Shown: positions 1 to 58,839 of the stretch, piece by piece
Layout: every line of letters begins with the position of its first letter
How positions within the stretch are numbered: position 1 is the first letter of the stretch
Source of the DNA: Thermoanaerobaculia bacterium
GTDB taxonomy: Bacteria > Acidobacteriota > Thermoanaerobaculia > Multivoradales > JAGPDF01
DNA: 64,000 nt
Assembly: GCA_046331385.1 (NCBI GenBank)
Contig: JAXLQW010000001.1
Location: 3,580,366 to 3,644,365, forward strand
Reading direction: 5' to 3'
Position numbers and translations under genes: made by a program
Notes under the pieces: generated by a model
Told to the model about the DNA's origin: nothing
Seen by the model: only the letters and a program-made list of their open reading frames with translations
The model's database searches: none

Positions 1-829
1 CGAACTCGCCGGTCTCGAGCACCCGCAGGAGCTTGGCCTGCAGGGCGAGCGGCACGTTGCCGATCTCGTCGAGGAAGAGGGTGCCGCCGTCGGCGACCTC
101 GAAGCGTCCGGCGCGGTCGGCCTTGGCGTCGGTGAAGGCGCCGCGCACGTGACCGAAGAGCTCGCTCTCGAACGTTCCCGCCGCCAGCCCGCCGACGTTG
201 ACCACCACCAGCGGGCGCGCCGCGCGCCGCGAGGCGGCGTGTAGAGCGCGCGCCACGATGCCCTTGCCGGTACCGTTCTCGCCCGCCACCAGGACGTTGG
301 CCTCGGAGGGTCCGACGCGCTCGACCAGCTCGAGCACCGGGCGCATCGCGGGCGACTCGGCCAAGAGCCGCGGCGCCGCCTCGCCGGCGAGCGCTCGGTT
401 CTCGGCCTCGAGGCGCTGACCGGCGCGCAGCGCCCGCGCGAGCTCGGCCTGGGTGCGCAGGATGGCGATCAGGCGCTCGTTCTCCCACGGCTTCTGCACG
501 AAGTCGCGCGCCCCTTGGCGCATCGCCTCGACCGCCAGCTCGACCGAGCCCCAGGCGGTCATCACCACCACCGGCAGAGTCGAGTCGAGCTTGCGGATCT
601 CGGCGAGCAGGTCGAGGCCCTCGCGACCCGAGGTGGTGTCGCGGGCGTAGTTGAGATCGATCAGCGCCACCTCGAAGTCGCGCTGGCGCAGGGCTTCGAC
701 CGCCGCCTGCGGCGCGCCGACGGTCTCGAGCTCGAAGCCCTCGGGCTTGAGCAGCAGGCGCAGCGCCTCGAGCACGTCGCGCTGGTCGTCGGCGACCAAG
801 ACGCGCGGCCGCGGATCGGCGGGGCTCAC
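1..829 (-). CDS. NtrC-family sigma-54-dependent response regulator, REC domain plus AAA+ sigma-54 interaction domain. The N-terminus starts at a GTG around 827-829; the C-terminus runs off the left window edge, so the CDS is partial.
   Basis: Reverse translation gives [26 protein letters not shown]...ALIDLNY...MTAWGS...QKPW, which is a receiver domain with the conserved DD, D, T and K. It is followed by [15 protein letters not shown] (Walker A) and [15 protein letters not shown]...[29 protein letters not shown], the sigma-54 activator signature. The GTG start overlaps the stop of the upstream GGDEF gene. Confidence 0.85.
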
Positions 830-2428: not shown

Positions 2429-3109
2429 TCAGACGGTTTCGTCGCCGACGATCCAGCCGTCGCGCAAGCGCACGATTCGTCGGCCGACGCGCGAGTTCTC
2501 CTCCGAGTGCGTCACCTGGATGATCGTCGTACCCTCGTCGTTCAGGCGCCGGAAGAGCCGCATGATCTCGCGCCCCTGGTCGGAGTGCAGGTTCCCGGTC
2601 GGCTCGTCGGCGAGCAGCAGCTTGGGCTTCAGCACCACCGCCCGCGCCACGCCGACCAGCTGCTGTTGGCCGCCCGAGAGCTGCGACGGGTAGAGGTCCT
2701 TCTTGCCGACGATTCCGAAGCGGTCGAGGGCGTCGGCCACCAGCGCCTGGCGCTCCGCTTTCTTCAGGTCGCGGTACGACAGCGGCACCTCGAGGTTCTC
2801 GGCCACCGTCAGGTCGTCGAGCAGGTGGTACTGCTGAAAGACGAAGCCGAGGTTGGCCTTGTGCAGCTCGTTGCGCTTCTTGAGCGAGAGCTCGTGCACG
2901 GCTTCGCCGCCGAACCGGTACTCGCCCTCCCACTCGCCGTCGAGCATGCCGAGGATGTGGAGGAGCGTCGACTTGCCGGCACCCGACGGCCCCATGATGG
3001 TGACGAAATCGCCGGGCTCGATTCCGAGATCGATCCGGCGCAGCAGCCAGATCTTCCCCGCCGGCGAGGCGATGGCCTTCTCGAGGTTCTTCAGTTCGAT
3101 CAGCGGCAC
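2429..3109 (-). CDS. ABC transporter ATP-binding protein, MacB/LolD type (a separate ATPase subunit).
   Basis: The 226-aa ORF carries GPSGAGKSTLL (Walker A), LSGGQQQLVGVARA (ABC signature), LLLADEPTGNLHS (Walker B) and the H-loop VTHS. It lies immediately downstream of an ADOP permease. Confidence 0.9.
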   Translation of the reverse strand: MPLIELKNLEKAIASPAGKIWLLRRIDLGIEPGDFVTIMGPSGAGKSTLLHILGMLDGEWEGEYRFGGEAVHELSLKKRNELHKANLGFVFQQYHLLDDLTVAENLEVPLSYRDLKKAERQALVADALDRFGIVGKKDLYPSQLSGGQQQLVGVARAVVLKPKLLLADEPTGNLHSDQGREIMRLFRRLNDEGTTIIQVTHSEENSRVGRRIVRLRDGWIVGDETV

Positions 3110-3177
3110 GCGAATCTCCTGAGCCAGGACGTCATTTTCCCTCGGGCCGGGCGCGAGAAGGCGCTCACGCAGCTTTT

Positions 3178-5601
3178 CTACTCCGCCCGCAGCGCGGCAG
3201 CCGGCTCGATGCGCGACGCGCGACGGGCGGGAATCCAGGCGATGACCAGGCCGGCGATCGCCACCGCGACGACCGCCAGGCCGACCGTCGGTGGATCGGT
3301 GGGCGAGATGCGATAGAGCTCCGGAGCGAGATAGGGGGCGAGCGGCAGGAGCGCCGCCAGGCCGACGCCGATGCCGACCGCGATCAGTCGCGCCGCTTGG
3401 CCGAGCACGCCGGCGACGAGCGCCCGCGGCGTCGCGCCGAGCGCGCCGCGCACCGCAAGCTCCCGCCGGCGCTCGCTGATCGAGGTCGCCAGGATGCCGA
3501 AGAGGCCGACGAGCGCGAGCGTGATCGCGATCCCCGCGAACCCGGCGAGCAGTCGCGCCGCGAATCGCCGCCGAGCGAGGGTGTCGGCGACCAGCGTGGC
3601 GAGCGGCCGGACGCGGAAGATCGGCAGGTCGGCGTCGAGCGCGGCGACCTCGCGACGGACCGGCTCGGAGAGCCGATCGAGCTGGCCCGGCTGGGCGGCG
3701 ACGGTAAAGGTCAGGAAGGTCGCCGGCAGCTGGTCGTGCAGTAGGTAGATCGTCGGGGGCGCCTCGGATTCGAGGTGCTGGTCGCGCACGTCGCCCACCA
3801 CGCCGACGACGTTGCCGCCGGCGCGTCCTCGCTCCCTGTAGAAGCTGAAACCGAGCTCGAGGCTATGGCCGAGCGGGTCGACGCCCGGATAGAGGCTGCG
3901 CGCCGCGCTCTCGTTCAGGAGCACGACGTTCTCGCCGCCCCAGCGGTCGCCGGGCGCGAACTCGCGACCCGAGCGAACCGGCGTGCCGCGCAGCGCGAAG
4001 TAGCCCGGCGTGACGACCCGCACCTGCGCCGACGGCTGGTCGGGAGCGTCCGGAATCTCGACGCCGTCGCGCTTGGACAGGGTGATGCCGAAGGCGAAAT
4101 CGGCGAAAGGCTGGCCGAACTCGGCCGCGACGGCGCGCACGCCGGGCAGCGCCGCCAACCGCTCGCGCAGCGCCGTGACCGCCCCGGAGACCTTCTCGGG
4201 CGTGTCGTACGAGGTTTGCGGCAGGCCGACCGAGAAGGTCAGCAGGTCGGTGGTCGCGAACCCCGGATGGACTTCGGCGAGCTGGGCGTAGCTCCGCGCC
4301 ACCACCAGCGATCCGCTGACCAGGACGAAGGCGAACGTGGTCGTGGCGACGACCAGCGCCCGGCGCGCGCGTCCGACCCCGCGCTGACCCAGGATCGTGC
4401 GCGCGCCGGCGCGCAAGGCGCCGATCGGATCGAGGCGCAAGGCGAGCAGCGCCGGGGCGAGGCCCACCGCCAGACCGCACAGGCCGGCGAGCGCCGCGGC
4501 GAAGAGCGCCGCCGGCAGGTCGAAGCTCGCTTCGCCGATCCGCGGCAAATCTCCCGCCCAAGCCGGTAGCGAACGCGCGAGCGCGGTGGCGAGCAGCCCG
4601 CCGCCGACCGCTCCGGCCGCCGCCACCAGGATCGCTTCGCCGAGCAGCTCGCGGGCGAGCGCCGACGGCGAGGCGCCGAGCGCGGCGCGCACCGCCAGGT
4701 CGTGTCCGCGCGCCACGGCGCGGGCGAGCGAGACGCTCGCGAGGTTGGCGCAGGCGGCGACGAGGGCGAGGGCGACCGCTCCGAGCAGCAGCAGGAGCGT
4801 CGGCCGCGCCGCCCTCGTCAGCTGGTCGGCGAGCGGCCGCGCGAGAGCGGATTGGCCGCCGTTGGTCGACGGGTACTGGACGGCGAGACGATCGCCGATC
4901 GTCGCCAGCTCGGCGCTCGCGGCCGCCACCGTCGTCCCCGGGGCGAGGCGGGCCACGGCATCGAGGTAGTGCGCACCGCGCTGAGAACGCAGCTCGTCGG
5001 CCGAGAAGGAGAGCGGCAGCCAGAGCTCCGAGCCGAGCGGCCAAGAGAAGCCGCGCGGCATGACTCCGACCACCGTGCGCGGCACGCCATCGACCGAGAT
5101 CCGGCGGCCGACGAGCGCCGGGTCGGCGCCGTAGCGGCGTCGCCAGAGGGCGTCGCTGAGCACCACGGTCGCCGCCTCCGGCGCGTCGTCGATCGCGCCG
5201 AGCGCCCGCCCGATCGCTGCGTCGACGCCCAAGACGCGGAAGAACTCGGCGGTGACCGCGCTCCCCGAGACCTGCTCGGCCGCGCTCCCGGTGGCGGAGA
5301 GCGCGTAGCTGCCGGCGTTGACTGCCGCGGCGGCGGTGAAGCTGCGGCTCTGCGCTCGCAGGTCGGCGAAGTTCGGCGGCGAGAGGACGGCCGGCCGGCC
5401 GTCGTGGCTCTCGTAAATCGCCACCAAGCGATGCGAATCGGGAAACGGAAGCGGTCGCAGCACCACCGCGTCGAAGGCGATCCAGACGAGGGCCGTCGCG
5501 CCGATGCCGAGCGTCAGCAGGATCGACGCGGTCAGAGCGTAGGCGGGGTCGCGGCGCAGCGAGCCGAATGCGGTCGCGAGTCGGGTCGGCAACTGGGTCA
5601 T
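3178..5601 (-). CDS. ADOP-type (FtsX/MacB-like, duplicated) ABC permease, paralog H. It is the last of the 8-gene array in transcription order.
   Basis: The true start is taken as the internal ATG giving MTQLPTRLATAFGSLRRDPAYALTASILLTLGIGATALVWIAFDAVVLRPLPFPDSHRLV. The ORF extension upstream of this ATG is Arg/Pro-rich junk. The protein is about 807 aa with an N-terminal TM helix, a large periplasmic domain and FtsX-like TM bundles, and it ends in AAALRAE. Confidence 0.85.
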   Translation of the reverse strand: MTQLPTRLATAFGSLRRDPAYALTASILLTLGIGATALVWIAFDAVVLRPLPFPDSHRLVAIYESHDGRPAVLSPPNFADLRAQSRSFTAAAAVNAGSYALSATGSAAEQVSGSAVTAEFFRVLGVDAAIGRALGAIDDAPEAATVVLSDALWRRRYGADPALVGRRISVDGVPRTVVGVMPRGFSWPLGSELWLPLSFSADELRSQRGAHYLDAVARLAPGTTVAAASAELATIGDRLAVQYPSTNGGQSALARPLADQLTRAARPTLLLLLGAVALALVAACANLASVSLARAVARGHDLAVRAALGASPSALARELLGEAILVAAAGAVGGGLLATALARSLPAWAGDLPRIGEASFDLPAALFAAALAGLCGLAVGLAPALLALRLDPIGALRAGARTILGQRGVGRARRALVVATTTFAFVLVSGSLVVARSYAQLAEVHPGFATTDLLTFSVGLPQTSYDTPEKVSGAVTALRERLAALPGVRAVAAEFGQPFADFAFGITLSKRDGVEIPDAPDQPSAQVRVVTPGYFALRGTPVRSGREFAPGDRWGGENVVLLNESAARSLYPGVDPLGHSLELGFSFYRERGRAGGNVVGVVGDVRDQHLESEAPPTIYLLHDQLPATFLTFTVAAQPGQLDRLSEPVRREVAALDADLPIFRVRPLATLVADTLARRRFAARLLAGFAGIAITLALVGLFGILATSISERRRELAVRGALGATPRALVAGVLGQAARLIAVGIGVGLAALLPLAPYLAPELYRISPTDPPTVGLAVVAVAIAGLVIAWIPARRASRIEPAAALRAE

Positions 5602-5647
5602 GGGCGTCTCCACGTCGGGATGGGGCGCTCGAGATTCGGCATCGGGG

Positions 5648-8101
5648 TCACTCCGCCCGCAGCGCGGCAGCCGGCTCGACCTCGGCCGCCCGCCAGGCGA
5701 TCGGCAGGACGGCCGCGGTCGTCGCGACCAGCAGCATCGCCGCCGCGGCGAGCCAGGCGAGCGGATCGAGCGCCGCGACGCCATAGAGAAAGCTCGCGAC
5801 CAGGTGAGCGCCCCAGCCGGCGGCGAGCGCGCCGGTCGCGAGGCCGGCCGCCGTCAGCGCCAGCGCCTCGCCGAGCACCAGACGGAGGATCCGGTGGCGC
5901 TCGGCGCCGAGCGCGGCGCGGATGCCGAACTCGCGCCTGCGCCGCCGGACGACGAACGCCACCAGCCCGGCGAGCCCGGAAGCGGTGAGCGCGAGCGCGA
6001 TCGCCGCCGCCGCGCCGACGAGCGCCGCGAAGGTGCGCTCGGGGGCGAGCGCCGCGGCGATCTGGTCGGCGAACGGGCGGGCGCGGAAGACCGGCAGCGC
6101 CGGGTCGACGGCCCGCGCCGCGGCGCGGATCGCGGCGATGGCGCGGGTCTCGCCGCCCGGCTCGACGCGGACCAGGAACTGGACGCGCGGGCGCGACTCC
6201 TGCGCCGCCGCGACGTAGAGCAGCGGCTTCGGTTGGTCGCGCAGTCCGCGCTCGCGGTAGCTCTCGACCACGCCGACGATCGTCACCTGCCAGGGATCGC
6301 GACCGGAGTCGTGGATCGTCCGGCCGACCGCCTCGCGTCCGGGGAAGAAGCGCTCGGCGAAGGCGCGGTTGACGATCGCGACCTTCGGCGCGCCCTCGCG
6401 GTCGCCGTCGCCGAAGTCGCGTCCGGCGACGAGAGGAATCCCGAGGGTGGCGAAGTAGCCCGGCGAGGCGAAGTTGAAGTTGACCGCCTCGTCGGCGCCC
6501 TCGGGCCAGGTGTAGCCCTCGGGGGTCATCGTGCGGCGCATGCCGCCGGACTCGGTCGGCACCTGGAAGCCGTAGGCCGCCCCGAGCACCCCGGGCGTCG
6601 CCGCCAGGCGCTCGCGGATCTCGGCCGCCACCCGGCGCGCCTCTTCGTCGCGGTATCCCTGACGAGCGAGGTCGACCATCGCGGTCGCGACGCCCGCGGG
6701 CCGGAAGCCGAGCGGCGTCGCGTGTAGGGCGACGAGCGTGCGACCGAAGAGGCCCGCGCCCACGAGCAGGAGCATGGCGAGCGCCGCCTGACCGGCGACC
6801 AGCAGCCGGCGCAGCCGCGGGCCGCGACCGCCCGCCGCTTCGGCGCCGGCGCCGCTCGCGCGCAGGGCGGCGAGCGCGTCGACGCGGGCGGCGGTCGCCG
6901 CCGGGCCGAGCGCGAAGACGAGGCTGGTGAGCCCGGCGAGGATCGCGGCGCCCGCCGCCACGCGCCCGCCCGAGAGCATGCCGGCCGGTTCGAGCGGGAT
7001 CGGCAGGCCGGGCGCATAGCGCGCGAAGAGGCCGACGATCGCCGACGACACGGGCACCGCCGCGAGCGCCGCGAGCGCCGCGACCAGCGCGCTCTCGGCG
7101 ACCGCCGAGCCGACCAGAGCGCGGCGCGACGCGCCGAGCGCGCCGCGGATGGCGAGCTCGCGCTGGCGCTCGAGCATGCGGGCGAGCGCCAGGCCGGCGG
7201 CGTTGGCCGCCGCGACCAGCAGGACGAGACCGCTCGTCGCGGCGAGCAGCCAGGCGACGCGCGCGACCCGCGGATCGTCCTCGACCAGGGCGCGCTCGGC
7301 GGGCACGAGGAGCGGCCAGGGGTCGCGATCCTCCCGGCTCTCGGTCTTGGCGCGCGCGGCGTCGATCGCGTCGAGCTCGGCCTGCGCCGCCGCGAGCGTC
7401 GCGCCGGGCGCCAGGCGCGCCGTGATGTCGAGGAACGACCAGCCGCGCTGCTCGAGCGGCTTCCACTGGCCCATCTCCGGGTTGACCAGGCCGATCGCGC
7501 TCATCGGCAGCCAGACCTCGGGGAAGCCGTTGAGCGTCGGGCCGCGGAAGCCGCGCGCCAGGACGCCGACGACGTCGACCGGCTGGCCGTTCAGGCGCAC
7601 CGTGGAGCCGACGATCGAGCGCTCGCCGGCGAAGCGCCGGCTGAAGCTCTCCCAGGAGAGCACGGCGACCGGCGGCGCGCCGGCGCGGTCGTCGGCCGGA
7701 CCGAGCAGCCGCCCGTAGGCCGGACGCGCTGCGAACAGGGCGAAGAAGTCGCCGGTCGCGAGGCCGGCGGCGATCCGCTCGGGCTCGCCGGCGCCGCGCG
7801 CGAAGTGCACCGACTCCCAGTCGGTCGAAGCCGCCACGTCGGTCAGCAGCCGGGCGCCGTCGCGGTAGTCGGTGAAGACCGGATACGACGAATTGCCCTG
7901 CGGTCCGGAGCGTTTCTCGTCGGTCGGGAAGATGCGCACCAGGCGGTCCGGCTCGGGCGCCGCCAGCGGGTGCACGAGCACCGCGTCGACGATGCGGTAG
8001 ATCCCGGTCGCCGCGCCGGCGCCGAGAGCGAGCAGCGCGACCGAGGTCACCAGATATCCGGGGCGACGGGAGAGCGAGCGCGCGATCTGCGACAGGTTCA
8101 T
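5648..8101 (-). CDS. ADOP-type ABC permease, paralog G.
   Basis: This is the C-terminal 817 aa of the 1421-aa artefact ORF. The start was chosen at MNLSQIARSLSRRPGYLVTSVALLALGAGAATGIYRIVDAVLVHPLAAPEPDRLV (cat at 8099-8101). The protein ends in AAALRAE. Confidence 0.85.
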   Translation of the reverse strand: MNLSQIARSLSRRPGYLVTSVALLALGAGAATGIYRIVDAVLVHPLAAPEPDRLVRIFPTDEKRSGPQGNSSYPVFTDYRDGARLLTDVAASTDWESVHFARGAGEPERIAAGLATGDFFALFAARPAYGRLLGPADDRAGAPPVAVLSWESFSRRFAGERSIVGSTVRLNGQPVDVVGVLARGFRGPTLNGFPEVWLPMSAIGLVNPEMGQWKPLEQRGWSFLDITARLAPGATLAAAQAELDAIDAARAKTESREDRDPWPLLVPAERALVEDDPRVARVAWLLAATSGLVLLVAAANAAGLALARMLERQRELAIRGALGASRRALVGSAVAESALVAALAALAAVPVSSAIVGLFARYAPGLPIPLEPAGMLSGGRVAAGAAILAGLTSLVFALGPAATAARVDALAALRASGAGAEAAGGRGPRLRRLLVAGQAALAMLLLVGAGLFGRTLVALHATPLGFRPAGVATAMVDLARQGYRDEEARRVAAEIRERLAATPGVLGAAYGFQVPTESGGMRRTMTPEGYTWPEGADEAVNFNFASPGYFATLGIPLVAGRDFGDGDREGAPKVAIVNRAFAERFFPGREAVGRTIHDSGRDPWQVTIVGVVESYRERGLRDQPKPLLYVAAAQESRPRVQFLVRVEPGGETRAIAAIRAAARAVDPALPVFRARPFADQIAAALAPERTFAALVGAAAAIALALTASGLAGLVAFVVRRRRREFGIRAALGAERHRILRLVLGEALALTAAGLATGALAAGWGAHLVASFLYGVAALDPLAWLAAAAMLLVATTAAVLPIAWRAAEVEPAAALRAE

Positions 8102-8130
8102 GGCTGCCTCCAGATGGGAGTGTCCACGCT

Positions 8131-10551
8131 TCAGTCCTCGCGCAGCGCCGACGACGGATCGAGCCGCGCGGCGCGCGCCGCCGGCAGCCAGCTCGCCACG
8201 AGCCCGGCGAGCGCCAGCACGGCGAGCGCGGCGATCGCCCAGCCCGGGCGGCGCGGATCGACGCCGTAGAGCACCGAGCCGGCGAGCGGTGCGACCAGGG
8301 CGACGAGCGCGAGACCGATCGCGGCGCCGAGGCCGAGCGGCGCGACGCCGAGCCGGACGACCTGGCGCCGGACGTCGGCCGGGGTCGCGCCGAGCGCCAT
8401 GCGCACGCCGATCTCGCGCTTGCGGCGCGAGGCGGCGTAGGAGACGACGCCGTAGAGCCCGATCGCCGCCAGCGCCAGCGCTTGGGCGGCGAAGATGGCG
8501 AAGATGGCGCCGAAGACGCGGCGGTCGGCGTAGGTCTGGTGCAGCCGGTCGAGGTAGGTCGCGACGTCGAACAGCGGCGCGTCGCGCTCGACCGCCGCGA
8601 GCTCGCGGCGGACGAGCGGCGCGAGCGCGCCGGGCGAGCCCGCGGCCGACCGGACGACGAGCGCGCCGGTGCGCCAGCCGAGGCGGGCGTACGGGACGTA
8701 GAGCTGCAGGCGCGAGCGCGGCGTCTGCTCCTGGATCTCCTCGTAGACGAGATCCGGCGCGACGCCGACGACCTCGAGCCGCGGGGCGTCGGCGGCCTGG
8801 CCGTACGCGAGACGCCGCCCGAGGGCCGGGCCGTCGGGGAAGAGGCGCGTCGCGAGGGTGCGATTGACGATCGCGACCGGCGCCTGCGGCGCGGCGAATT
8901 CGGCGGCGGTGAAGGTCCGTCCGGCGTCGAGCGCGAGGCCGAGCGCGGCGAAGAACTCCGGCGAGACGCCGACCACCGAGACCGCCGGCGCTTGCTCGGG
9001 AGCGAGGCTCGAGCCCTCGGCGAGCACGTGCTCGGCGGCGCCGCCGTCGTCGGCCGGCAGCGAGGTCACGGTGGCGGCCGCCGCCACGCCCGGCAGCGCG
9101 TTCAAGCGGTCGAGGAGCGCCCGTTGGGCGACCACCCGCGACTCGGGCTGGTCGTAGCGGTCGCCCGGCAGGTAGAAGCGCGCCGAGAGGACGGGCCGCG
9201 GATCGAAACCGGCGTCGGCGCGCGCCAGCGCGAGGAAGCTGCCGAGGATCCAGCCGGCGACGGTGAGCAGCGCGAGCGAGCCGGCGAACTGCGCCGCCAC
9301 CAGGGCGCGCTGGCCGCGCGTGCCGGAGCGGTCGCCGAGCGCGCGGGCCCCGGCGTGCAGCGCCCCCGCCGCCGGCACGTCGCCGAGGCGCAGCGCGGGC
9401 AGCAGGCCGCTCGCGATCGCCGCCAGACTCGCGACCGCGGCGATGCCCGCCGCCAGGCGCGGATCGAGATCGACCGTCAGCCAGGTGGGCAACTCCTCGT
9501 CCATCGCCCCGAGCGCGGCCACGAGCCCCGCGCGCCCGAGGGCGAAGCCGAGCGCCGTGCCGGCGAGGGCGAGCAGCGCGCTCTCGACCAGCGCGATCGC
9601 CGCCAGCCGGCCGCGCGAGGCGCCGAGAGCGCGGCGCACGGCCATCTCGTTCTCGCGCGCCACGCCGCGCGCCATCTGCAGCGCGGCGACGTTGGCGCAG
9701 GCGACGAGGAGCACCGCGATCACCGCGGCGACGAGGAGGATCAGGAAGCGATGCCCGTGCTCGTCGACCAGCGAGTCGCGCAGGCCGAGGACGCGCGCCC
9801 CGCGGCCGCGGTCGGCGGCGGGTCCGGCGGCGGCGACTTTGGCGAGCACCGCGTCGACCCGCGGCTGCAGCGCGGCGGCGGTCGTGCCCGCGGGCAGCTT
9901 GGCGATCGTCCACCAGTCGCGGCCGCGGTCGTCGAGCCGGCCGTCGGCGGGGAAGGGCACGTAGGCGCGGGTGTGCTCGGGCAGACCGAAGCCGGGCGGC
10001 AGGACGCCGACGACCGTCAGCGCGCGGTCGTTCATCTCGAGCTTGGCGCCGATCGCGCCCGGGTCGCCGGCGAAGCGGTCCTGCCAGAGGCCGTAGGAGA
10101 GGACCACCGCCTCCTCGTGGCCGAACTCGCGCTCGTCGTCCTGGCGGAAGGCGCGGCCGAGGATGGGACGCACGCCGAGCACGTCGAAGAAGTTGGTCTC
10201 GACCGACGCGCCGTCGATCCGCCGCGGCTCGTCGACGCCGGTGAGCGTCAGGTTGCGGTGCACCAGGCTGCTGACCGCGGCGAACGTTCCCGACTCGGCG
10301 AGAGCGTGAATCTCCGGCCGCGACAATCCGTCGTCGTCCGAAGCGGCGCGCTCGAACGTCGGCTCGAAGGCGACGAGGCCGGTGCCCTCGACCGCGGGCA
10401 GCGGGCGGAAGAGCAGGGAGTAGGCGAGGGTCACGACCGCGGTGGTCGCGCCGGTGCCGAGCGCCAGCGTCGCGATCGCGGCGGCGGTGATGCCGCGGCC
10501 GCGCCCGAGCTGACGCAGCGCCGGCCGGACTTCGGCGAGCCAGGAGATCAT
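8131..10551 (-). CDS. ADOP-type ABC permease, paralog F.
   Basis: This is part of the 1820-aa artefact ORF. The start was chosen at MISWLAEVRPALRQLGRGRGITAAAIATLALGTGATTAVVTLAYSLLFRPLPAVEGTGLV (cat at 10549-10551), 2 nt from the stop of the upstream paralog. The protein ends in SSALRED. Confidence 0.8.
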   Translation of the reverse strand: MISWLAEVRPALRQLGRGRGITAAAIATLALGTGATTAVVTLAYSLLFRPLPAVEGTGLVAFEPTFERAASDDDGLSRPEIHALAESGTFAAVSSLVHRNLTLTGVDEPRRIDGASVETNFFDVLGVRPILGRAFRQDDEREFGHEEAVVLSYGLWQDRFAGDPGAIGAKLEMNDRALTVVGVLPPGFGLPEHTRAYVPFPADGRLDDRGRDWWTIAKLPAGTTAAALQPRVDAVLAKVAAAGPAADRGRGARVLGLRDSLVDEHGHRFLILLVAAVIAVLLVACANVAALQMARGVARENEMAVRRALGASRGRLAAIALVESALLALAGTALGFALGRAGLVAALGAMDEELPTWLTVDLDPRLAAGIAAVASLAAIASGLLPALRLGDVPAAGALHAGARALGDRSGTRGQRALVAAQFAGSLALLTVAGWILGSFLALARADAGFDPRPVLSARFYLPGDRYDQPESRVVAQRALLDRLNALPGVAAAATVTSLPADDGGAAEHVLAEGSSLAPEQAPAVSVVGVSPEFFAALGLALDAGRTFTAAEFAAPQAPVAIVNRTLATRLFPDGPALGRRLAYGQAADAPRLEVVGVAPDLVYEEIQEQTPRSRLQLYVPYARLGWRTGALVVRSAAGSPGALAPLVRRELAAVERDAPLFDVATYLDRLHQTYADRRVFGAIFAIFAAQALALAAIGLYGVVSYAASRRKREIGVRMALGATPADVRRQVVRLGVAPLGLGAAIGLALVALVAPLAGSVLYGVDPRRPGWAIAALAVLALAGLVASWLPAARAARLDPSSALRED

Positions 10552-10553
10552 CC

Positions 10554-12947: not shown

Positions 12948-12950
12948 GGG

Positions 12951-15371: not shown

Positions 15372-15394
15372 CGGTCTCTCCTGGCGCGTCGAAT

Positions 15395-17887: not shown

Positions 17888-17915
17888 CGCGGCTCTCCTC
17901 TCGGAATCGTCGGGC

Positions 17916-20354
17916 TCACTCGGACCTCAGGGCCGCGGCGGGCTCGATCGCCAGCGCGCGGCGCGCCGGGACGGCGACCGCGAGCGCCGCGACCGCGAAG
18001 AGCAGGGCGGGCACGCCGGCGAAGGTGAGCAGGTCGCCGGGCGACAGGCCGTAGAGCAGGCTGGCGAGCATCCGCGAGAGGCCGAACGCGATCGCCAGCC
18101 CGACCGCCGCGCCGATCGCGACCGGGCGCGCGGCGTCGCCGAAGACCAGCCGCAGCAGGTTGCGCCGTCCGGCGCCGAGCGCCACCCGCACCGCGAGCTC
18201 GCGGCGGCGCGCGGCGACCGCGTAGGCGACCACGCCGTAGAGGCCGACCGCGGCGAGGAACATGCCGAGCGCGCCGAGCGAACCGGCGACCGAGGCGGCC
18301 AGGCGCTGCGGCAGGGTCGAGGTCGCGGCGATCTCGACCAGCGGCAGCGGCAGTCCGGCGGGCAGATCGGGGTCGATGCCGCGGAACAGCTCGCCGACCG
18401 TCGCGGCGAGCGCGGCCGTCGAGCCGCTCGTGCGCACGAGAAGGGACATTTCGTGCAGGTCGATCTGCGAGGCGGCGACCCAGTAGAAGAGCCGCGGCTG
18501 CTCGCCGAGCGAGCGCGCCTTGATGTCGCGCGCCACGCCGACCACCCGGTACGGATTGCGTGTCGCTCCGTCGAGCAGGTAGAAGGTGCGGCCGACCGCG
18601 CCGCCGGGGAAGAACCGGTCGGCGAAGGTGCGGTTGACGATCGCCACCCGGGGCGACTCCTGGCGGTCACCGGGCTCGAAGTCGCGCCCCTCGAGCGGAA
18701 TGTCGAGCAGCGAGAAGAAACCGGGCGAGACGATGTTGGCGTCGGCCTCGAAGCCGTTCTCGCCGGGGCTCTCGACGCCGTCGACTTCGATCCCGCCGAG
18801 CCCGAGCGAGTTCAGGTCGAGCGGCACCATGCGCGCCGCGGCGGCGCCGGTGACATCGGGCAGGGAGCGCGAGCGCTCGAGCAGCTCGTCGAGCTTCGCC
18901 TGGGCGGCGGCGCCGCGCAGCCCGGCGAGATCGAGGTTGAAGTCGAACGCCACGACGCCGGAGGTCCGGAAGCCGGGATCGATGTGTCGCGCGGTGTCGA
19001 GCGCGCGCAGCAGCAGGCCCGCGACCACGAGCAGCACGAGCGACAGTGCGACCTGCCCGCCGACCAGGAAGCGCCGCCAGCGCAGCGGCCGCCGTCCGAC
19101 GGTCGCCGTGCCGTCGCGCAGCGCCGCTTGCGGATCGCGCCGCGCCGCGCTGAGCGCCGGGACCAGGCCGAAGACGAGACCGGTCGCGAGCGCCAAGGCC
19201 AGGGCGAAGAGCGCCGCCCGCCAGTCGACCGGAAAGTCGAGCGCCACCGGGAAGGGCGTCGGCGGGCGGAAGGCGGCGATCAGGGCGACCCCCCAGCGCG
19301 CCAGCAGCAGCGCCGGCGCCGCCGCCAGCGCGAACAGCAGCAGAGTCTCGACCAGGAGCTGCGCGACGATCCGGCGCGTCGAGGCGCCGAGCGCCTGGCG
19401 CACCGCGAGCTCCCGCTGCCGGGCCTCGCCGCGGGCGAGCAGCATCGAGGCGACGTTCATGCAGGCGATCGCCAGCACCAGACCGACGAGGACGAAGAGC
19501 AGGGCCGAAAAGAGCCGCACGGCGGCGCGCCCCTCGCCGGGCACCGGCGCGGTGGGCAGCACGCGCGCGCCGCGGTGGGCATGGCTGGCGGGATAGGCCT
19601 GAGCGATGCGCGCGGCGATCGCGCCGAGCTCGGCCTGCGCCGAGGCGATCGAGGCGCCGGGAGCGAGCCGGCCGCCGATCAGCAGCCAGGCCGACGCGCG
19701 CGACTTGAGCTTGCGGGTCTGCCATTCGTCGTCCGACAACGCCGTCGACAGCGGCACGAAGACCTCGGGGCGTAGGCCGAAGATGAGGCCGGTGAAGTCG
19801 GCGGGCGCGACTCCCACCAGCGTGAACGGCCGGCTGTCGACGCGGATGACCGAGCCGATCGCCGCGCGATCGCCGGCGAGCTCGCGGACGAAGAAGTCGT
19901 GGCTGACGACCGCTACCGGGGCTCCGCCGGTCGGCAAGTCCTCCTCGGGGAGGAAGAACCGGCCGAGCTCGGGGTGGACGTCGAGGGCGGTGAAGTAGGT
20001 CGCCGAGACGCTGAAGCCGAGCACCCGTCGCGAGGTCTCGCCCACCCGCACGCTGAACGGGTTCATGTCGAAGCCGTAGACGTTTTCGAGGCTCTTCGCC
20101 TGGCGGTAGTCGAGCAGATCGAGGTAGCCGAAGGTGTCGGCGCCCTCGCCGTTCTCGGTGCGCACGACGTCGACGATCCGGTCCGGGCGCGAGATGCCCG
20201 ACATCGGCCGCAGCAGGAGCGCCTGGACGATCGAGAAGACGGCGGTCGCGCCGCCGATGCCGATCGCCAGCGACGCCACGGCGGCCAGGGTGAAGCCCGG
20301 GCTGGCTGCGAGGCGGCGCCGGGCGAGACCGAACGGCGACGAGGCTCGGGACAT
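17916..20354 (-). CDS. ADOP-type ABC permease, paralog B.
   Basis: The 812-aa ORF starts MSRASSPFGLARRRLAASPGFTLAAVASLAIGIGGATAVFSIVQALLLRPMSGISRPDRIV and ends in AAALRSE. Confidence 0.85.
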   Translation of the reverse strand: MSRASSPFGLARRRLAASPGFTLAAVASLAIGIGGATAVFSIVQALLLRPMSGISRPDRIVDVVRTENGEGADTFGYLDLLDYRQAKSLENVYGFDMNPFSVRVGETSRRVLGFSVSATYFTALDVHPELGRFFLPEEDLPTGGAPVAVVSHDFFVRELAGDRAAIGSVIRVDSRPFTLVGVAPADFTGLIFGLRPEVFVPLSTALSDDEWQTRKLKSRASAWLLIGGRLAPGASIASAQAELGAIAARIAQAYPASHAHRGARVLPTAPVPGEGRAAVRLFSALLFVLVGLVLAIACMNVASMLLARGEARQRELAVRQALGASTRRIVAQLLVETLLLFALAAAPALLLARWGVALIAAFRPPTPFPVALDFPVDWRAALFALALALATGLVFGLVPALSAARRDPQAALRDGTATVGRRPLRWRRFLVGGQVALSLVLLVVAGLLLRALDTARHIDPGFRTSGVVAFDFNLDLAGLRGAAAQAKLDELLERSRSLPDVTGAAAARMVPLDLNSLGLGGIEVDGVESPGENGFEADANIVSPGFFSLLDIPLEGRDFEPGDRQESPRVAIVNRTFADRFFPGGAVGRTFYLLDGATRNPYRVVGVARDIKARSLGEQPRLFYWVAASQIDLHEMSLLVRTSGSTAALAATVGELFRGIDPDLPAGLPLPLVEIAATSTLPQRLAASVAGSLGALGMFLAAVGLYGVVAYAVAARRRELAVRVALGAGRRNLLRLVFGDAARPVAIGAAVGLAIAFGLSRMLASLLYGLSPGDLLTFAGVPALLFAVAALAVAVPARRALAIEPAAALRSE

Positions 20355-20369
20355 GACGATTCCTCCGGG

Positions 20370-22808
20370 CTATTCGCTGCGCAGGACGGCGATGGGCTCG
20401 GTGCGCGCCGCGGCGAGCGCCGGTCCGAGGCCGGCGCCGACGGCGACCGCGGCGATGAAGAGAGCGACGGCAATCCAGGTGGCCGGGTCGAGCGGACTCA
20501 CTCCGGCGAGCTGGCTGGCGACCAGGCGCGACAGCGCCGCGCCGCCTGCGAGGCCGGCCGCGAGGCCGATCGCCGCCAGGACGACCGCCTCCGAGAGGAT
20601 CCAGCGCGCGATGCGCGGCGCGGTGGCGCCGATCGCCATGCGCACGCCCACTTCGCGCGCGCGTTGCGTGACCAGGAAGGCGACCAGCGCGTAGAGCCCG
20701 GTCGCCGACAGGAAGATGGCGAGGGTCGCGAAGGCGCCCACCATCCACAGCGTCAGGCGGCGGTCGGCGAGCGACGCGGAGAGCACCTCGTCGAGGGTGA
20801 GGAGGGTGTGCACCGGCTGCTGCGGCGCGATCTCGCGCACCGCCGCGCGCACCGCGGCGGCGAGGCTCGAAGTCGGCAGCGCCGAGCGCACCACCAACAC
20901 GATGTCGTTGGCGAACATGTTGGCGACCCGCGGATCGGTGGCGAGGAAGGTGAGCTCCGGCAGCGACTCCTGTTCGAGGCCGCCCTGGCGCACGTCGCCC
21001 ACCACGCCGACGATCGTGACGTAGTCCTCGCCGCCGAAGCGGACGCGGCGGCCGAGAACGTCGCCCGCCGGGAAATGGCGGCGGACGAAGGCCTGGTTGA
21101 CCAGGCAGGGCGCCGGCGAGCGATCGTCTTGCGAGGCCGCGGCGTCGCTGGCGGCGAGGAAGCGCCCGGCCTTGAGCGGCACGCCGAGGGCGCGGAAGGC
21201 GTCGGCGCTCGCGGCCCGCGTCTCGACCCACCATTCCTCGCCCGCCGGCGGCGCCTGCAGGCCCTCGATGGTGTACGAGGTGTTGCGCCCCCAGTTCTGT
21301 ATCGGCAACAGCGAAACCACGCCCGCCGACTCGACCCCGGGCAGCGCCGAGAGCCGATCGAGCATCGGCGCGAGGAGCGTCGCGCCGACCGTGCCGTTCG
21401 CCACCATCCGCTCGTCGGGCGACAGGTGGAGGGTCAGCACGCCGACGCGATCGAAGCCCGGGGAGACGCCCTGCAGATGGAAGAAGGTGCGCAGCAGCAG
21501 TCCGGCGCCGAGCAGGAGGGTGGTCGAGAGCGCCACCTGCGCCGTGACCAGCGTCCGCCGCGCGCGCTGGCGACCGCGACCCCCAGTGGCGCGCAGGCCG
21601 CTCTCGACCAGCTCGCGGGCGAGTTGGTCGCGCGACAGGGCGAGGGTCGGGGCGAGACCGAAGAGCAGTCCCGTCGCGCCGCCGATCGCGAGCAGGAAGG
21701 CGAACGCCGCGAAGTCGATGCGCAGGGCGCCGAGGTCGGGCAGCAGCTGGGCGACGCGCGGCGCGAGCCAGGCGAGCAGCCCGCGCGCCACCGCTACCGC
21801 CAGCACCAGGCCGGCCGCGGTCAGCAGCAGGTTCTCGACCGCGAGCTGGCGAACGACCTGGAAGCGCGACGCGCCGAGCGCGGCGCGGATCGACATCTCG
21901 CGCTGGCGGGCGGCGGCGCGAGCGAGAGCGAGACCGGCGAGGTTGGCGCAGGCGATCGCCAGCACCGCACCGACCGCGCCGAAGAGCAGCAGCAGCGTCG
22001 GCCGGATCGAGCCGCGGATCGCCTCGGTCAGCGGCAGGACGCGCACCCCGCGCCCGGTCTGCGCGTCGGGGTACTCCATTTCGAGCCGGGCGGCGATCTC
22101 CTCGAGCTGCTTCCTGCCGCGCTCGATCGGCACGCCGGGGGCGAGCTTGCCGAGCACGCCGAGGTAGTGCTCGCCGCGCATCTCGGCGAGCTCGCCCGGC
22201 AGGTGCGGCAGGTAGAGATCCACCTTGGCGCCGTAGGTCGGATAGCGGAAGGAATCGGGAAGCACGCCGACGACGACGTGGGCGACGCCGTCGAGCACCA
22301 GCGGCCGGCCGACGACGCCGGGATCGGCGCCGAAGCGCCGGCGCCAGAAGCGCTCGGCGAGCACCGCCACGCGGCTCGACTCCGGGCGCTCGTCGTCGGC
22401 GGTGAACAGGCGGCCGACGATCGGCCGCGCGCCGAGCACCGAGAAGAGCGAGGCAGTGGATTCGAGCGCCGGCAGGCGCTCCGGGTCGCCCGCGCCCTGC
22501 AAGTTGCGGCTGGCGGCGGTGTAGGCGGCGAGCGCCGCGAAGGAGTCGGCGCGCGCGCTCCAGTCGCGGAAATTGGGCGCCGAAGCCGTGCCGAAGCCGG
22601 CGTCGTGGCTGTAGGTTTCCCAGATCCGCACCAAGCGATCGGAGTCGGGGTAGGGCAGCGGCGCGATCAGCTCGCGGTGGACGACCGAGAAAATCGCCAC
22701 GTTCGCCCCGACGCCGAGGGCGAGAATGGCGACCACCGCGATGGCGTAGCCCGGGACGCGGGCGAGCGAGCGCAGAGCGACGCGGAACTCCGCCAGGAGC
22801 GCGGACAC
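20370..22808 (-). CDS. ADOP-type ABC permease, paralog A. It is the first of the array in transcription order.
   Basis: The 812-aa ORF starts MSALLAEFRVALRSLARVPGYAIAVVAILALGVGANVAIFSVVHRELIAPLPYPDSDRLV and ends in IAVLRSE. Confidence 0.85.
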   Translation of the reverse strand: MSALLAEFRVALRSLARVPGYAIAVVAILALGVGANVAIFSVVHRELIAPLPYPDSDRLVRIWETYSHDAGFGTASAPNFRDWSARADSFAALAAYTAASRNLQGAGDPERLPALESTASLFSVLGARPIVGRLFTADDERPESSRVAVLAERFWRRRFGADPGVVGRPLVLDGVAHVVVGVLPDSFRYPTYGAKVDLYLPHLPGELAEMRGEHYLGVLGKLAPGVPIERGRKQLEEIAARLEMEYPDAQTGRGVRVLPLTEAIRGSIRPTLLLLFGAVGAVLAIACANLAGLALARAAARQREMSIRAALGASRFQVVRQLAVENLLLTAAGLVLAVAVARGLLAWLAPRVAQLLPDLGALRIDFAAFAFLLAIGGATGLLFGLAPTLALSRDQLARELVESGLRATGGRGRQRARRTLVTAQVALSTTLLLGAGLLLRTFFHLQGVSPGFDRVGVLTLHLSPDERMVANGTVGATLLAPMLDRLSALPGVESAGVVSLLPIQNWGRNTSYTIEGLQAPPAGEEWWVETRAASADAFRALGVPLKAGRFLAASDAAASQDDRSPAPCLVNQAFVRRHFPAGDVLGRRVRFGGEDYVTIVGVVGDVRQGGLEQESLPELTFLATDPRVANMFANDIVLVVRSALPTSSLAAAVRAAVREIAPQQPVHTLLTLDEVLSASLADRRLTLWMVGAFATLAIFLSATGLYALVAFLVTQRAREVGVRMAIGATAPRIARWILSEAVVLAAIGLAAGLAGGAALSRLVASQLAGVSPLDPATWIAVALFIAAVAVGAGLGPALAAARTEPIAVLRSE

Positions 22809-22818
22809 CGCTCCTCCG

Positions 22819-23528
<710 letters not shown>

Positions 23529-23532
<4 letters not shown>

Positions 23533-24776
23533 TCCAGTCGGACGCGGTCGAACGCGTCCCAGGTCGACATGTCGGAGAGGATCACGCGGTCCCCTTCAGC
23601 GAGGCCGCTTTGGACTTCGATGAGGTGCACCGAGCCGCGCCCGAGCTTCACCTGCACGCGGGCCGCGTCGTCGCCGTCGGCGCCGACCCGGAACAGGGTC
23701 ACGGTCGACTCGGGCTGACCGAACGCCGGGCGGCCGACGAAGAGCACGTCCGAGAGATGCTCGAGCTCGATCGTGCCGTCGACCGACAGGTCGGGGCGCG
23801 CGCCCTTGGGCAGGGTCCCGAGGAGCTGGACGTCGACGGTGACCGTGCCGTTCTGCACCGCCGGATCGATGCGCAGCACCTTGCCCTCGACCACGCCGTT
23901 GCGGGTGTCGATCTTCGCCGGCTGGCCGAGGAGCACGTCGCGCGCCTGGGTCTCGGCGATTTTCAACTCCGCCTTGAGCGGTTCGGGGCGGGCGACGCGC
24001 GCCAGCGTCGTGCCCGGCGTCACCCGCTGGCCGACCTCGACCGGCAGCTGCTGCAGGACGCCGGCGAGCCCGGCGCGCACCTTGAGCGCCTCGACTTCGC
24101 CGGCGCGCAGGCGGTGGAGCTCGCGCAACTGATCGACCCGCGCCTGCTGCGCCGCGAGCTGGGCCTGGATCGAGGCCTCGCCGCCGGTCAGGCGCTGGGT
24201 CTCGAGGTCGGTGCGGGTTTTCAGCTCCTCGGCCCGCACGCGCGAGATCTTGAGCTGCAGGGCGGAGACCAGCCCCTCCTTGGCGAGCTGCTCGTTGGCC
24301 TCGGCCTCGAGCCGCGCCTGTTGGTAGTCGGCGTCGACCGACGCGGCCTGGGCTTTCTGGTCGAGCTTGGTGCTCTCGAGCCGGACGCGAAGGGCGGCGA
24401 GGTCGGCTTCGGCGGCGCGCTCCTGGAACTCGGCGTCGCGCGCCGAGACCTCGAGCTCCGGGTTGGTCAGCTCGAGGATCACGCTGTCGGGTTCCACCGC
24501 GGCTCCCGGCTGCAGCAGGAGGCGCTCGATCCGGCCTTCGGAGGCGGCCGAGATCCAGCGAATGTCGATCGGCACCAGCGTCCCGTTGCCGCGCACCTCG
24601 CGCACGAAGTCGCCGCGCCGGACGGTGTCGATCCACAGCGTGCCCTTCTCGACCTGCGGTGCCGCCGGCTTGAGGCGGGCGAGGCCGACGGTCACGAGCG
24701 CGATCGCCAGCGTCGCGCCGCCTCCGACGAGAAGTCGCCGGCGCGTGCGGTTCGGGGGCGTGCGAGGAATGTCCAT
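23529..24776 (-). CDS. HlyD/MacA-family periplasmic adaptor (membrane-fusion protein) with a long coiled-coil hairpin.
   Basis: The protein has an N-terminal TM anchor (RRRLLVGGGATLAIALVTVGLA), then a Q/A/E/L-rich coiled coil (RVRLESTKLDQKAQAASVDADYQQARLEAEANEQL...), then beta-barrel/MP-proximal regions. The ORF track starts at a TTG at 24792-24794. The ATG at 24774-24776 (MDIPRTPP) is chosen here because a sigma-54 promoter element overlaps the TTG. Confidence 0.8.
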
Positions 24777-24790
24777 CGCATCTCTCCATG

Positions 24791-24805
24791 GCAACGTCGG
24801 TGCCA
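24791..24805 (-). promoter_or_regulatory. Candidate sigma-54 (RpoN) -24/-12 promoter, TGGCAC-N5-TTGC on the minus strand, directly upstream of the adaptor/ATPase/ADOP operon.
   Basis: The reverse complement of 24786-24807 reads cTGGCACcgacgTTGCcatgg. This is a perfect match to the GG-N10-GC core consensus (TGGCAC N5 TTGC). The predicted start site is around 24779, just 5' of the ATG at 24776. Confidence 0.45.
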
Positions 24806-24992
24806 GGTCCGGAGTTTCAACCTAACTTACGATCCGGCCTCGGTTTGGGTTGCGCGGCGGCGGGCCGGCGCGGGGGCCGCCGTGTGCGCTGCCGGGACGA
24901 GACTGTGCCGGAAGCGGACACCGCCGCGCTCCCGGCGGGCCCCTGCCGAAAGTGGGGATCGACCGTCGGCCGAGAATGAATAGAATGCGCCG

Positions 24993-57467: not shown

Positions 57468-57506
57468 AATCTGGTCTACATGTCTCACGACCGACGGAGG
57501 TCTGCG

Positions 57507-58802: not shown

Positions 58803-58839
58803 GCCAACCGGACCGCGTGAGAACCGCAAGGAGACGGCG

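Follow-up and report, generated by a model that had tools for sequence, protein, structure and literature searches.

The described systems closest to the one reported here are MacAB-TolC, YbbAP-TesA, LolCDE and BceAB-BceRS. We analyzed a 64-kb stretch of DNA (the window, about 75% GC) from a Thermoanaerobaculia metagenome-assembled genome, a soil-type Acidobacteriota. Eleven genes form an unbroken row on the minus strand at window positions 2429-24805 and encode one MacA-like adaptor, a first ATPase (ATPase A), eight permeases of the ADOP family (P8 to P1) and a second ATPase (ATPase B). With moderate confidence, we read this array as a sigma-54-controlled, MacAB-like envelope machine, a type VII member of the ATP-binding cassette (ABC) class, in which a hub of adaptor and ATPases would serve exchangeable permeases. 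The parts all belong to known families, namely ADOP/TIGR03434, type VII ABC ATPases, MacA-like adaptors and NtrC-type regulators.

MacAB-TolC, known from E. coli, A. baumannii and A. actinomycetemcomitans, resembles the system encoded here in the FtsX fold with four transmembrane (TM) helices, the Porter/Sabre domain between TM1 and TM2, the coupling helix between TM2 and TM3, the MacB/LolD-clade ATPases and the MacA-like adaptor with its long hairpin. However, the ATPase is fused to the N-terminus of MacB, whereas here it is a separate protein and two distinct ATPases are encoded. MacB is a homodimer of 4-TM permeases, whereas an ADOP is predicted to be a single-chain 8-TM fusion with two non-identical periplasmic domains. 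Eight permeases per adaptor, putative sigma-54/NtrC control and the fact that no outer-membrane factor was identified in the window or the annotated loci also distinguish the array from MacAB-TolC.

In YbbAP-TesA of E. coli (PDB 9GE6-9GE8; PMC12646458), the permease is one pseudo-symmetric chain that contains two periplasmic domains and two coupling helices, as predicted for an ADOP, and the ATPase is a separate protein, bound 2:1 in YbbAP. YbbP and BceB have 10 TM helices, two of which form a linker pair (PMC12646458, PMC5985334), located at TM5-6 in YbbP, whereas the ADOP model has 8 TM helices and no linker pair. In addition, YbbA is a homodimer of one gene product, the partner is the periplasmic thioesterase TesA instead of an adaptor and there is one permease per system, while the ADOP cluster encodes no thioesterase. 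LolCDE is similar in its two non-identical 4-TM modules and separate LolD-type ATPase, and it was among the fold matches, but LolC and LolE are separate proteins, one ATPase gene is present, there is no adaptor, the partner is LolA, and the system is essential and single-copy. BceAB-BceRS of Firmicutes also combines a type VII single-chain permease and a separate ATPase with a two-component system whose kinase lacks an extracytoplasmic sensor. Unlike an ADOP, BceB has 10 TM helices and one extracellular domain, and the system has an OmpR-type, sigma-70-dependent regulator, no adaptor and one permease per module.

Convergence on a common component is known from Anabaena, where DevBCA paralogs of the MacB type share the outer-membrane factor HgdD; there, each system has its own adaptor, permease and ATPase, whereas here the adaptor and the ATPases would be the shared parts (PMC8277102). 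A 42-kb cluster on genomic island 43 of the flavobacterium Psychroflexus torquis contains ten ADOP paralogs and other transporter genes, including ATP-binding ones, and the encoded proteins were highly abundant; the cluster was described without a hub analysis, sigma-54 control, a conserved adaptor or a two-ATPase core (PMC3914696). Mentions of ADOPs elsewhere only count copies (PMC11573002). Reviews of the superfamily cover the topologies of MacB, FtsEX, LolCDE, YbbAP and BceAB and include neither an 8-TM two-domain fusion nor a system with two ATPase genes (PMC5985334, PMC8277102). The direct 4+4 TM fusion with two periplasmic domains that is predicted here, together with two distinct ATPases, is absent from the type VII architectures described in these reviews. 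The initial annotation was not aware of a description of such a system. The layout is not exceptional: at least 593 species have the core, 12 ADOPs were counted in one relative, and the cluster of Psychroflexus torquis was already published (PMC3914696). A description of the hub architecture was not found in our search, which did not extend to most subscription journals, so that an earlier one may exist.

Composition of the array and conservation of its parts

The mechanical list of open reading frames (ORFs) contained many spurious entries owing to the high GC content; genes were called from stop to stop on the minus strand. The array consists of the following genes.

23529-24776, minus strand: adaptor (membrane fusion protein, MacA-like), 415 aa, conserved ATG start (MDIPR...; mechanical TTG start at 24794)
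22819-23532, minus strand: ATPase A, 237 aa, canonical type VII subunit of the MacB/LolD clade by NCBIfam and PDB matches
20370-22808, minus strand: ADOP P8, 812 aa, TIGR03434 787 bits
17916-20354, minus strand: ADOP P7, 812 aa, TIGR03434 752 bits
15395-17887, minus strand: ADOP P6, 830 aa, TIGR03434 745 bits
12951-15371, minus strand: ADOP P5, 806 aa, TIGR03434 749 bits
10554-12947, minus strand: ADOP P4, 797 aa, TIGR03434 764 bits
8131-10551, minus strand: ADOP P3, 806 aa, TIGR03434 698 bits
5648-8101, minus strand: ADOP P2, 817 aa, TIGR03434 716 bits
3178-5601, minus strand: ADOP P1, 807 aa, TIGR03434 716 bits
2429-3109, minus strand: ATPase B, 226 aa, second, distinct type VII nucleotide-binding subunit

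The stop-to-stop reading and the TIGR03434 scores agreed with the initial annotation in the positions of the eleven genes and in the presence of eight intact permeases of about 800 aa in tandem. The identities that it had proposed (ADOP permeases, MacB/LolD-type ATPases and a MacA-like adaptor) were borne out by NCBIfam, Pfam and fold matches, and the N-terminal motif said to be common to the permeases was present in the alignment. The adaptor and ATPase A genes overlap by 4 nt, and the successive gaps from ATPase A to ATPase B are 10, 15, 28, 23, 3, 2, 29, 46 and 68 nt, with 2-46 nt between permease genes and 68 nt ahead of ATPase B. A GGAG-type ribosome-binding site was found ahead of every gene in the array. 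Scans for sigma-70 promoters and intrinsic terminators within the array gave matches at chance level only, which neither supports nor excludes internal signals. The small gaps, the ribosome-binding sites and the absence of internal promoters or terminators above chance were counted in favor of a putative operon. None of the array genes showed a frameshift or truncation, and their GC content at third codon positions (GC3) was 0.90-0.95, similar to that of the neighbors. Horizontal acquisition of the array was rejected, since its GC3 equals that of the neighboring genes and the backbone synteny with relatives is kept. No additional ADOP gene was found elsewhere in the 64 kb, and eight genes of the same family in tandem are beyond chance.

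All eight permeases matched the NCBIfam model TIGR03434 (ADOP; curated cutoff 622.3 bits) end to end, with 698-787 bits over model positions of about 1-803. Each showed the Pfam architecture MacB_PCD-FtsX-MacB_PCD-FtsX (PF12704 and PF02687, two each). The 'orphan' trait of the family, which means that no ABC ATPase gene is adjacent and which is descriptive and not a sequence criterion, does not apply here, with two ATPase genes in the operon. Large paralogous expansion, a trait of the family first noted in Acidobacteria, was seen in the eight copies here and the 12 in a Thermoanaerobaculia relative. The ADOP-like family comprises 55,367 clusters (50% identity) at E<=1e-30. Many ADOP homologs, for example P0361, P0367 and P0388, are 870-890 aa long because their N-terminus is extended by about 80 residues, an extension that these eight do not have.

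An AlphaFold2 (AF2) model of P8, based on 61 aligned sequences, had a predicted local distance difference test score (pLDDT) of 88.7 and a predicted template modeling score (pTM) of 0.83. TM helices were placed at residues 19-48, 260-300, 315-355 and 366-393 in the first half and at 411-447, 681-715, 730-762 and 775-801 in the second, a 4+4 layout with two periplasmic domains of mixed alpha/beta structure. The position of the MacB coupling helix (TM2-TM3) is taken by short helices on the cytoplasmic side, at 302-310 and 717-725, and TM4 and TM5 are joined by a short cytoplasmic segment without a linker helix pair. In a Foldseek search of this model against the PDB, the top full-length match was E. 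coli YbbAP (9ge6_A, E = 5e-17), and further matches were MacB, Spr0694-0695, LolCDE, BceAB and HrtBA, with E-values of 5e-17 to 1e-6 overall. According to the model, each ADOP would be a self-contained 8-helix pseudo-dimer and would correspond to an entire MacB dimer or to LolC and LolE combined. The predicted structure also shows the features that define type VII ABC permeases, namely stalk helices and a module of four TM helices in which TM1 and TM2 flank a large periplasmic domain.

The eight paralogs were 31-39% identical in all pairwise comparisons, with star-like relationships. Mean pairwise identity among them was 52% and 48% in the two coupling helices, 48% in TM2 and 55% at the C-terminus, versus 31% and 29% in the periplasmic domains. 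In a conservation profile of 104 aligned ADOPs from several phyla, the coupling helices were kept throughout and were among the most conserved segments. The conserved coupling helices and divergent periplasmic domains suggest that the ATPase-facing surface is common to the paralogs, while the presumed substrate-facing parts differ. Identities of 31-39% further indicate that the array is ancient and not a recent amplification, and the paralogs are old and individually maintained. Recent tandem duplication was rejected on the basis of these identities, the star-like relationships and the collinear orthologs in relatives.

The adaptor matched the Pfam families HlyD_3 and HlyD_D23. Its AF2 model (pLDDT 88.8) contains an N-terminal TM anchor, lipoyl, beta-barrel and membrane-proximal domains, and an alpha-hairpin whose two helices (106-166 and 172-229) are each about 60 residues long. 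The top fold matches were MacA in MacAB-TolC (9qgy_G, 5nik_D) and MacA crystal structures (4dk0). The adaptor is 54-69% identical across phyla and has thousands of close homologs.

For both ATPases, the best models were DarD, MacB, LolD and FtsE, and the structure matches were MacB, Spr0694, MJ0796 and LolD, with the nucleotide-binding domain of MacB for ATPase B. ATPases A and B are 46% identical to each other. Orthologs of A are 71-83% identical across phyla and scored about 360 bits against A and about 190 bits against B, while orthologs of B are 61-72% identical across phyla and scored about 300 bits against their own B and about 200 bits against A; relatives of B up to 94% identical were found in the protein search. 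The A-type gene nearly always stands directly after the adaptor gene, and the B-type gene was found in many gene orders. A and B are two distinct orthologous groups that recur across phyla. The two bracketing ATPases of the initial annotation are both present, but they are not interchangeable bookends. A scored higher against Spr0694 than against B; the two are thus not closest relatives of one another, and an origin by duplication within the system was not indicated.

The Walker A, Walker B, Q-loop, signature and H-loop motifs were intact in A, in B and in the orthologs of both. The B group has the D-loop GNLHS instead of GNLDS and the signature LSGGQQQL instead of LSGGQQQR, and both substitutions were kept in at least 90% of 33 B-type sequences (window and L003-L087). 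The Asp to His change in the D-loop and the Arg to Leu change after the signature may be correlated, as a pair located where the two subunits of the ATPase dimer meet. We tentatively consider that A and B could form a heterodimer matching the asymmetric permease, rather than two alternative homodimers, though we lean slightly to the other side. The points that may speak for a heterodimer are the co-location of the two genes in many gene orders, their distinct conserved groups, the asymmetric permease and the D-loop changes of B.

Related loci and variation in permease number

A scan with the adaptor, using one genome per species, identified a relative in at least 593 species. The best 80 of these loci, which come from 80 different assemblies, span all Acidobacteriota classes, Verrucomicrobiota (Chthoniobacterales, Opitutaceae) and Eremiobacterota; among them, adaptor identity was 54-65% and one hub locus was found per genome. 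Related loci were annotated using the window proteins, and 62 adaptor-anchored genome loci had sufficient flanking DNA to be usable. An A-type ATPase was present in 56 of the 62, at least one ADOP in 55, a B-type ATPase in 26 and an ortholog of the regulator in 21. With M for the adaptor and P for an ADOP, the gene orders were MAB, MAPB, MAPPB, BMAPPP, MABPP, MPAPB and MPPPAP. The number of ADOPs per locus ranged from 0 to 12. No ADOP was present in L005-7, L011, L024 and L046, many loci had one or two, and others had at least four; for some loci the viewing limit was 10 kb, and the counts there are lower bounds. The synteny check proposed in the initial annotation gave a recurring core with fluid ADOP arrays. 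A lone ADOP in a myxobacterium had no hub genes nearby.

The loci L088 and L090 together represent one Thermoanaerobaculia relative, which shares the chromosomal backbone of PolA, MoCF, arginase and Ser/Thr kinase. Its genes run from the adaptor and A through eleven ADOPs to B, which is followed by one more ADOP (the twelfth), FdhD and the regulator. Collinear orthologs of P8, P7, P5, P4 and P1 were found in this relative with 60%, 65%, 52%, 46% and 52% identity, respectively, the P8 ortholog lying in L088 and the P4 ortholog in L090. The P1 ortholog, also in L090, adjoins ATPase B as in the window, directly ahead of it. P7 orthologs were 63-65% identical in L001, L015 and L088, and P5 orthologs were 52-57% identical in relatives.

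A strain 94-95% identical in DNA (L091) has an extra ADOP gene (816 aa; L091 11969-14457) between A and P8. The start of P8 in the window (22770-22808) corresponds to the first 13 codons of this extra gene, fused in frame to the next gene. The sequence of the junction indicates that neighboring paralogs recombined at their conserved 5' ends and that one permease gene was thereby deleted in frame. A difference of one gene at 94-95% DNA identity shows that copy number changes over very short evolutionary times.

The same strain served as the reference for the ratio of nonsynonymous to synonymous substitution rates (dN/dS). The values were 0.031 for the adaptor and 0.030 for ATPase A, and 0.24, 0.20 and 0.14 for P8, P7 and P6 (part of the gene), respectively. 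The genes measured were all under purifying selection, and the hub genes were about 7-fold more constrained than the permeases. Such selection means that none of these is a pseudogene. Pseudogene decay was rejected, since all eight ADOPs are full length and above the cutoff and the measured values were 0.14-0.24; neither of the findings that would have undone the initial annotation, membership outside the FtsX/MacB family or several pseudogenes, was made. Across phyla, the identities of the adaptor (54-65%), A (71-83%) and B (61-72%) compare with 31-45% (about 35%) for the best ADOP matches. Slow evolution of the hub genes would be expected for proteins with many partners.

Promoter, regulator and neighboring genes

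The initial annotation overlooked the regulatory part of the locus, to which a GGDEF protein belongs as well as a sigma-54 promoter and a response regulator of the sigma-54 type. Its features are as follows.

24791-24805, minus strand: sigma-54 (-24/-12; GG-N10-GC) promoter TGGCACCGACGTTGC, the -12 element ending 14 nt ahead of the adaptor ATG
24903-24922, minus strand: conserved upstream block GGTGTCCGCTTCCGGCACAG, candidate binding site of a sigma-54 activator; it lies upstream of the -24 element at a distance of about 100 nt
826-2340, minus strand: 7TM-PAS-GGDEF diguanylate cyclase (Pfam HisKA_7TM, PAS_4, GGDEF), 88 nt after ATPase B
2-817, minus strand: NtrC-type response regulator (Pfam Response_reg and Sigma54_activat), cut by the window start

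The sequence TGGCACCGACGTTGC is the sole perfect match to TGGCAC-N5-TTGC in the 64 kb. The promoter is kept at an equal distance from the ATG in L015 and L088, and its core TGGCACCG is also present in L001. Sigma-54 matches with at most two mismatches and at most 100 nt upstream of the adaptor ATG were found at 28 of 84 loci, compared with about 2.2 expected from the background rate within the same 84 loci, an enrichment of about 13-fold. The position of the promoter implies a leader of about 3-4 nt and, if used, near-leaderless translation of the adaptor, here and in L015 and L088. In an alignment of four Thermoanaerobaculia upstream regions, GGTGTCCGCTTCCGGCACAG was the only strongly conserved block besides the promoter; it occurs once in the window and is a candidate activator-binding site. 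A search for inverted repeats in the upstream region was uninformative in DNA of 75% GC.

The regulator is 69% identical to the one that follows ATPase B in Vicinamibacterales and 76% identical to the regulator of L090. In Vicinamibacterales, its gene overlaps ATPase B, and in Verrucomicrobiota it stands with a kinase gene directly upstream of the adaptor gene. In Acidobacteriota as well as in Verrucomicrobiota, the regulator thus accompanies the cluster, though in differing positions, and it may act on the TGGCACCGACGTTGC promoter. The partner kinase of the window regulator presumably lies beyond the window start. The cluster-linked kinase of relatives (L003 16570-17883; L090 17682-19010) has two N-terminal TM helices about 10 residues apart and lacks a periplasmic sensor domain. 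Kinases such as BceS, for which a partner transporter does the sensing, have this build. The diguanylate cyclase is possibly co-transcribed with the array; it is lineage-specific, and L090 carries an ADOP plus FdhD at the same position. Its location between ATPase B and the regulator hints that the pump operon may be linked to cyclic di-GMP signaling. The unit extends from the sigma-54 promoter to the window start and is larger than 2429-24805.

Divergent from the adaptor is a Ser/Thr protein kinase gene (24993-26627, plus strand), whose position is kept in the Thermoanaerobaculia relatives L001, L088 and L091. A mechanical ORF at 24822-26393 on the minus strand was considered as an outer-membrane gene and rejected, as it is an Arg-rich antisense artifact of this kinase gene. 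At 57468-60300 (plus strand), about 34 kb from the ADOP operon, the window encodes a FadL/TodX-type outer-membrane transporter and then a GDSL-family lipase (58699-60300). The lipase belongs to the hydrolase family of TesA, the YbbAP partner, and there was no evidence that it is linked to the ADOP operon. The interval 27612-32513 has a low GC content (60-63% versus about 73%) and encodes two large secreted proteins, one of 681 aa with an internal repeat and no Pfam match and one of 941 aa with an apiosidase-like PF13204 domain. In the relatives L001, L088 and L091, the same interval between arginase and MoCF contains only small unrelated genes, and 27612-32513 is probably an acquired insert.

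A proposed shared hub and the alternative readings

In the reading that we favor, the hub would consist of one membrane-anchored MacA-like adaptor and the two MacB/LolD-clade ATPases, A and B. Each ADOP would need two nucleotide-binding subunits and could sit under one adaptor ring. The eight ADOPs would be alternative clients of the hub with a common cytoplasmic interface and differing periplasmic domains, and each complex would handle its own substrate from the periplasm or the outer leaflet. The complexes, in analogy to MacB, would work by ATP-driven mechanotransmission, and expulsion would probably take place through an unlinked TolC-like channel. Transcription would start from the sigma-54 promoter abutting the adaptor gene, upon activation by the NtrC-type regulator at the end of the cluster. 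The data establish the gene content, the family membership, the predicted fold, the promoter motif with its conservation, the presence of the core in at least 593 species, the variation in permease number and the difference in selective constraint. From these we infer that the ATPases and the adaptor are physically shared, that the activity is efflux through a duct like TolC, that the linked regulator exerts control and that unlinked ADOPs are served as well.

A nearly invariant, slowly evolving, apparently single-copy core accompanied by ADOPs that vary freely in number and order is most simply accounted for by a hub with exchangeable permeases. Alternative assembly of the permeases on shared subunits, one of two possibilities raised in the initial annotation, is favored by the 0-12 permeases around a near-invariant core, by the coupling helices and by the roughly 7-fold constraint on the hub. 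The permease-free MAB loci imply that permeases with genes at other places can be clients of the hub as well, which would explain the 'orphan' look of most ADOPs.

Several points weigh against this reading. The sharing of subunits was deduced from gene content and conservation alone, and ADOPs elsewhere in the genomes with permease-free MAB loci are likewise presumed. A TolC-family/OEP gene was absent among the window genes scanned and in the annotated related loci; the initial annotation was right that an adaptor and ATPases accompany the 'orphan' permeases, but its 'complete' tripartite context does not hold without an outer-membrane channel gene in the window. The TM-scores of the fold matches were modest (0.41), probably because of domain orientation. 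With the promoter this near to its ATG, the adaptor would have to be translated without a leader or almost without one. As a heterodimer signature, we looked for a degenerate ATP site in B and saw only the D-loop and post-signature substitutions, both ATPases keeping their catalytic motifs. In addition, B was absent in 9 of the 24 clusters with both ends visible, and for this reason an obligatory A/B heterodimer is not established.

A wider form of the hub reading is possible but rather doubtful, namely that one hub, comprising the adaptor, an A and B heterodimer, and an intramembrane-sensing kinase with its sigma-54 regulator, serves the whole ADOP repertoire of the cell, including dozens of unlinked 'orphans'. 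Group II energy-coupling factor (ECF) transporters and MsiK/MsmK provide a working analogy, in which one energizing module is common to many substrate-specific components, some of them encoded elsewhere; they have an unrelated fold, are importers and work without a periplasmic adaptor. If the wider form is true, the hub would be a combinatorial plug-in platform of type VII ABC permeases, a periplasm-facing analog of group II ECF transporters, and would explain how a membrane-protein family of soil Acidobacteriota and Verrucomicrobiota, among the largest that are uncharacterized, is energized and regulated.

Efflux through a TolC duct is suggested by the MacA-like adaptor, and a role in extraction or sensing is a serious alternative, although we consider it unlikely. 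In that case, the hub and its clients would be the same, but they would not carry out TolC-coupled efflux; the ADOPs would be extractors or mechanotransducers and the adaptor a periplasmic scaffold. They might pull lipids, lipoproteins or lipid-linked antimicrobial targets from the inner membrane, or else they might switch on partners in the periplasm or inform the kinase of flux; LolCDE, YbbAP-TesA, FtsEX and BceAB-BceS work in such ways. The top full-length fold match, YbbAP, is an extractor that works with a periplasmic hydrolase, and the linked kinase of relatives, without a periplasmic sensor, resembles kinases that sense via a type VII ABC transporter (PMC12646458). An outer-membrane factor gene was found in none of the loci seen, which also fits this alternative. 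However, the cluster encodes no thioesterase, LolA-like or EnvC-like partner, and the adaptor has the full MacA-like four-domain build with a long hairpin of the TolC-docking kind and top matches to MacA in MacAB-TolC. E. coli tolC is also unlinked to macAB.

It is improbable that all or some of the linked ADOPs are the sole clients of the hub in an ordinary tandem-duplicated operon that is not shared genome-wide, with unlinked ADOPs and possibly ATPase B belonging to other machineries. The absence of B from nine of the 24 fully visible clusters and the myxobacterial ADOP that stands alone are consistent with such an arrangement. The permease-free MAB loci, however, would make no sense unless a transmembrane partner is encoded elsewhere; moreover, the coupling helices are kept in all 104 ADOPs compared, from several phyla, and the unusually slow evolution of the hub genes is what many partners would lead one to expect.

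The other possibility raised in the initial annotation, a large hetero-oligomeric exporter in which several ADOPs, both ATPases and the adaptor assemble in fixed stoichiometry, is very unlikely. The eight genes are co-oriented and tightly packed and several paralogs have collinear orthologs in relatives, which speaks for such an assembly, but each ADOP is predicted to be a closed, complete 8-TM pseudo-dimer that supplies both coupling helices. The number of ADOPs is 0, 1, 2, 3, at least 4, 8 or 12 across genomes, and the difference of one gene between strains 94-95% identical would be intolerable for a fixed assembly. Finally, that the adjacency is fortuitous or vestigial, with ADOPs that are ATPase-independent or decaying duplicates and hub genes that serve something else, agrees with the 'orphan' name and with members usually lacking adjacent ATPase genes (name quoted in PMC3914696, PMC11573002), but is hardly credible given that 55 of the 62 usable loci, which come from different phyla and show many gene orders, have ADOPs next to the hub, that all eight ADOPs are full length with measured dN/dS of 0.14-0.24, and that the coupling helices, the ATPase-docking elements, are the best conserved parts.

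ADOP-like proteins form a very large family with tens of copies per genome in abundant soil phyla; their function is not known, and their name implies that they have no partners. Our analysis points to a dedicated set of ADOP partners, consisting of a slowly evolving adaptor, two ATPases and a sigma-54 two-component switch, typically at one locus per genome. This core probably supplies the long-missing partners of the ADOP permeases. If permeases exchange on a common hub, this would be a new organizational principle for tripartite pumps. It would also provide soil bacteria with a plausible route to diversify resistance or export by the shuffling of single genes, and one such gene loss was seen between two strains.

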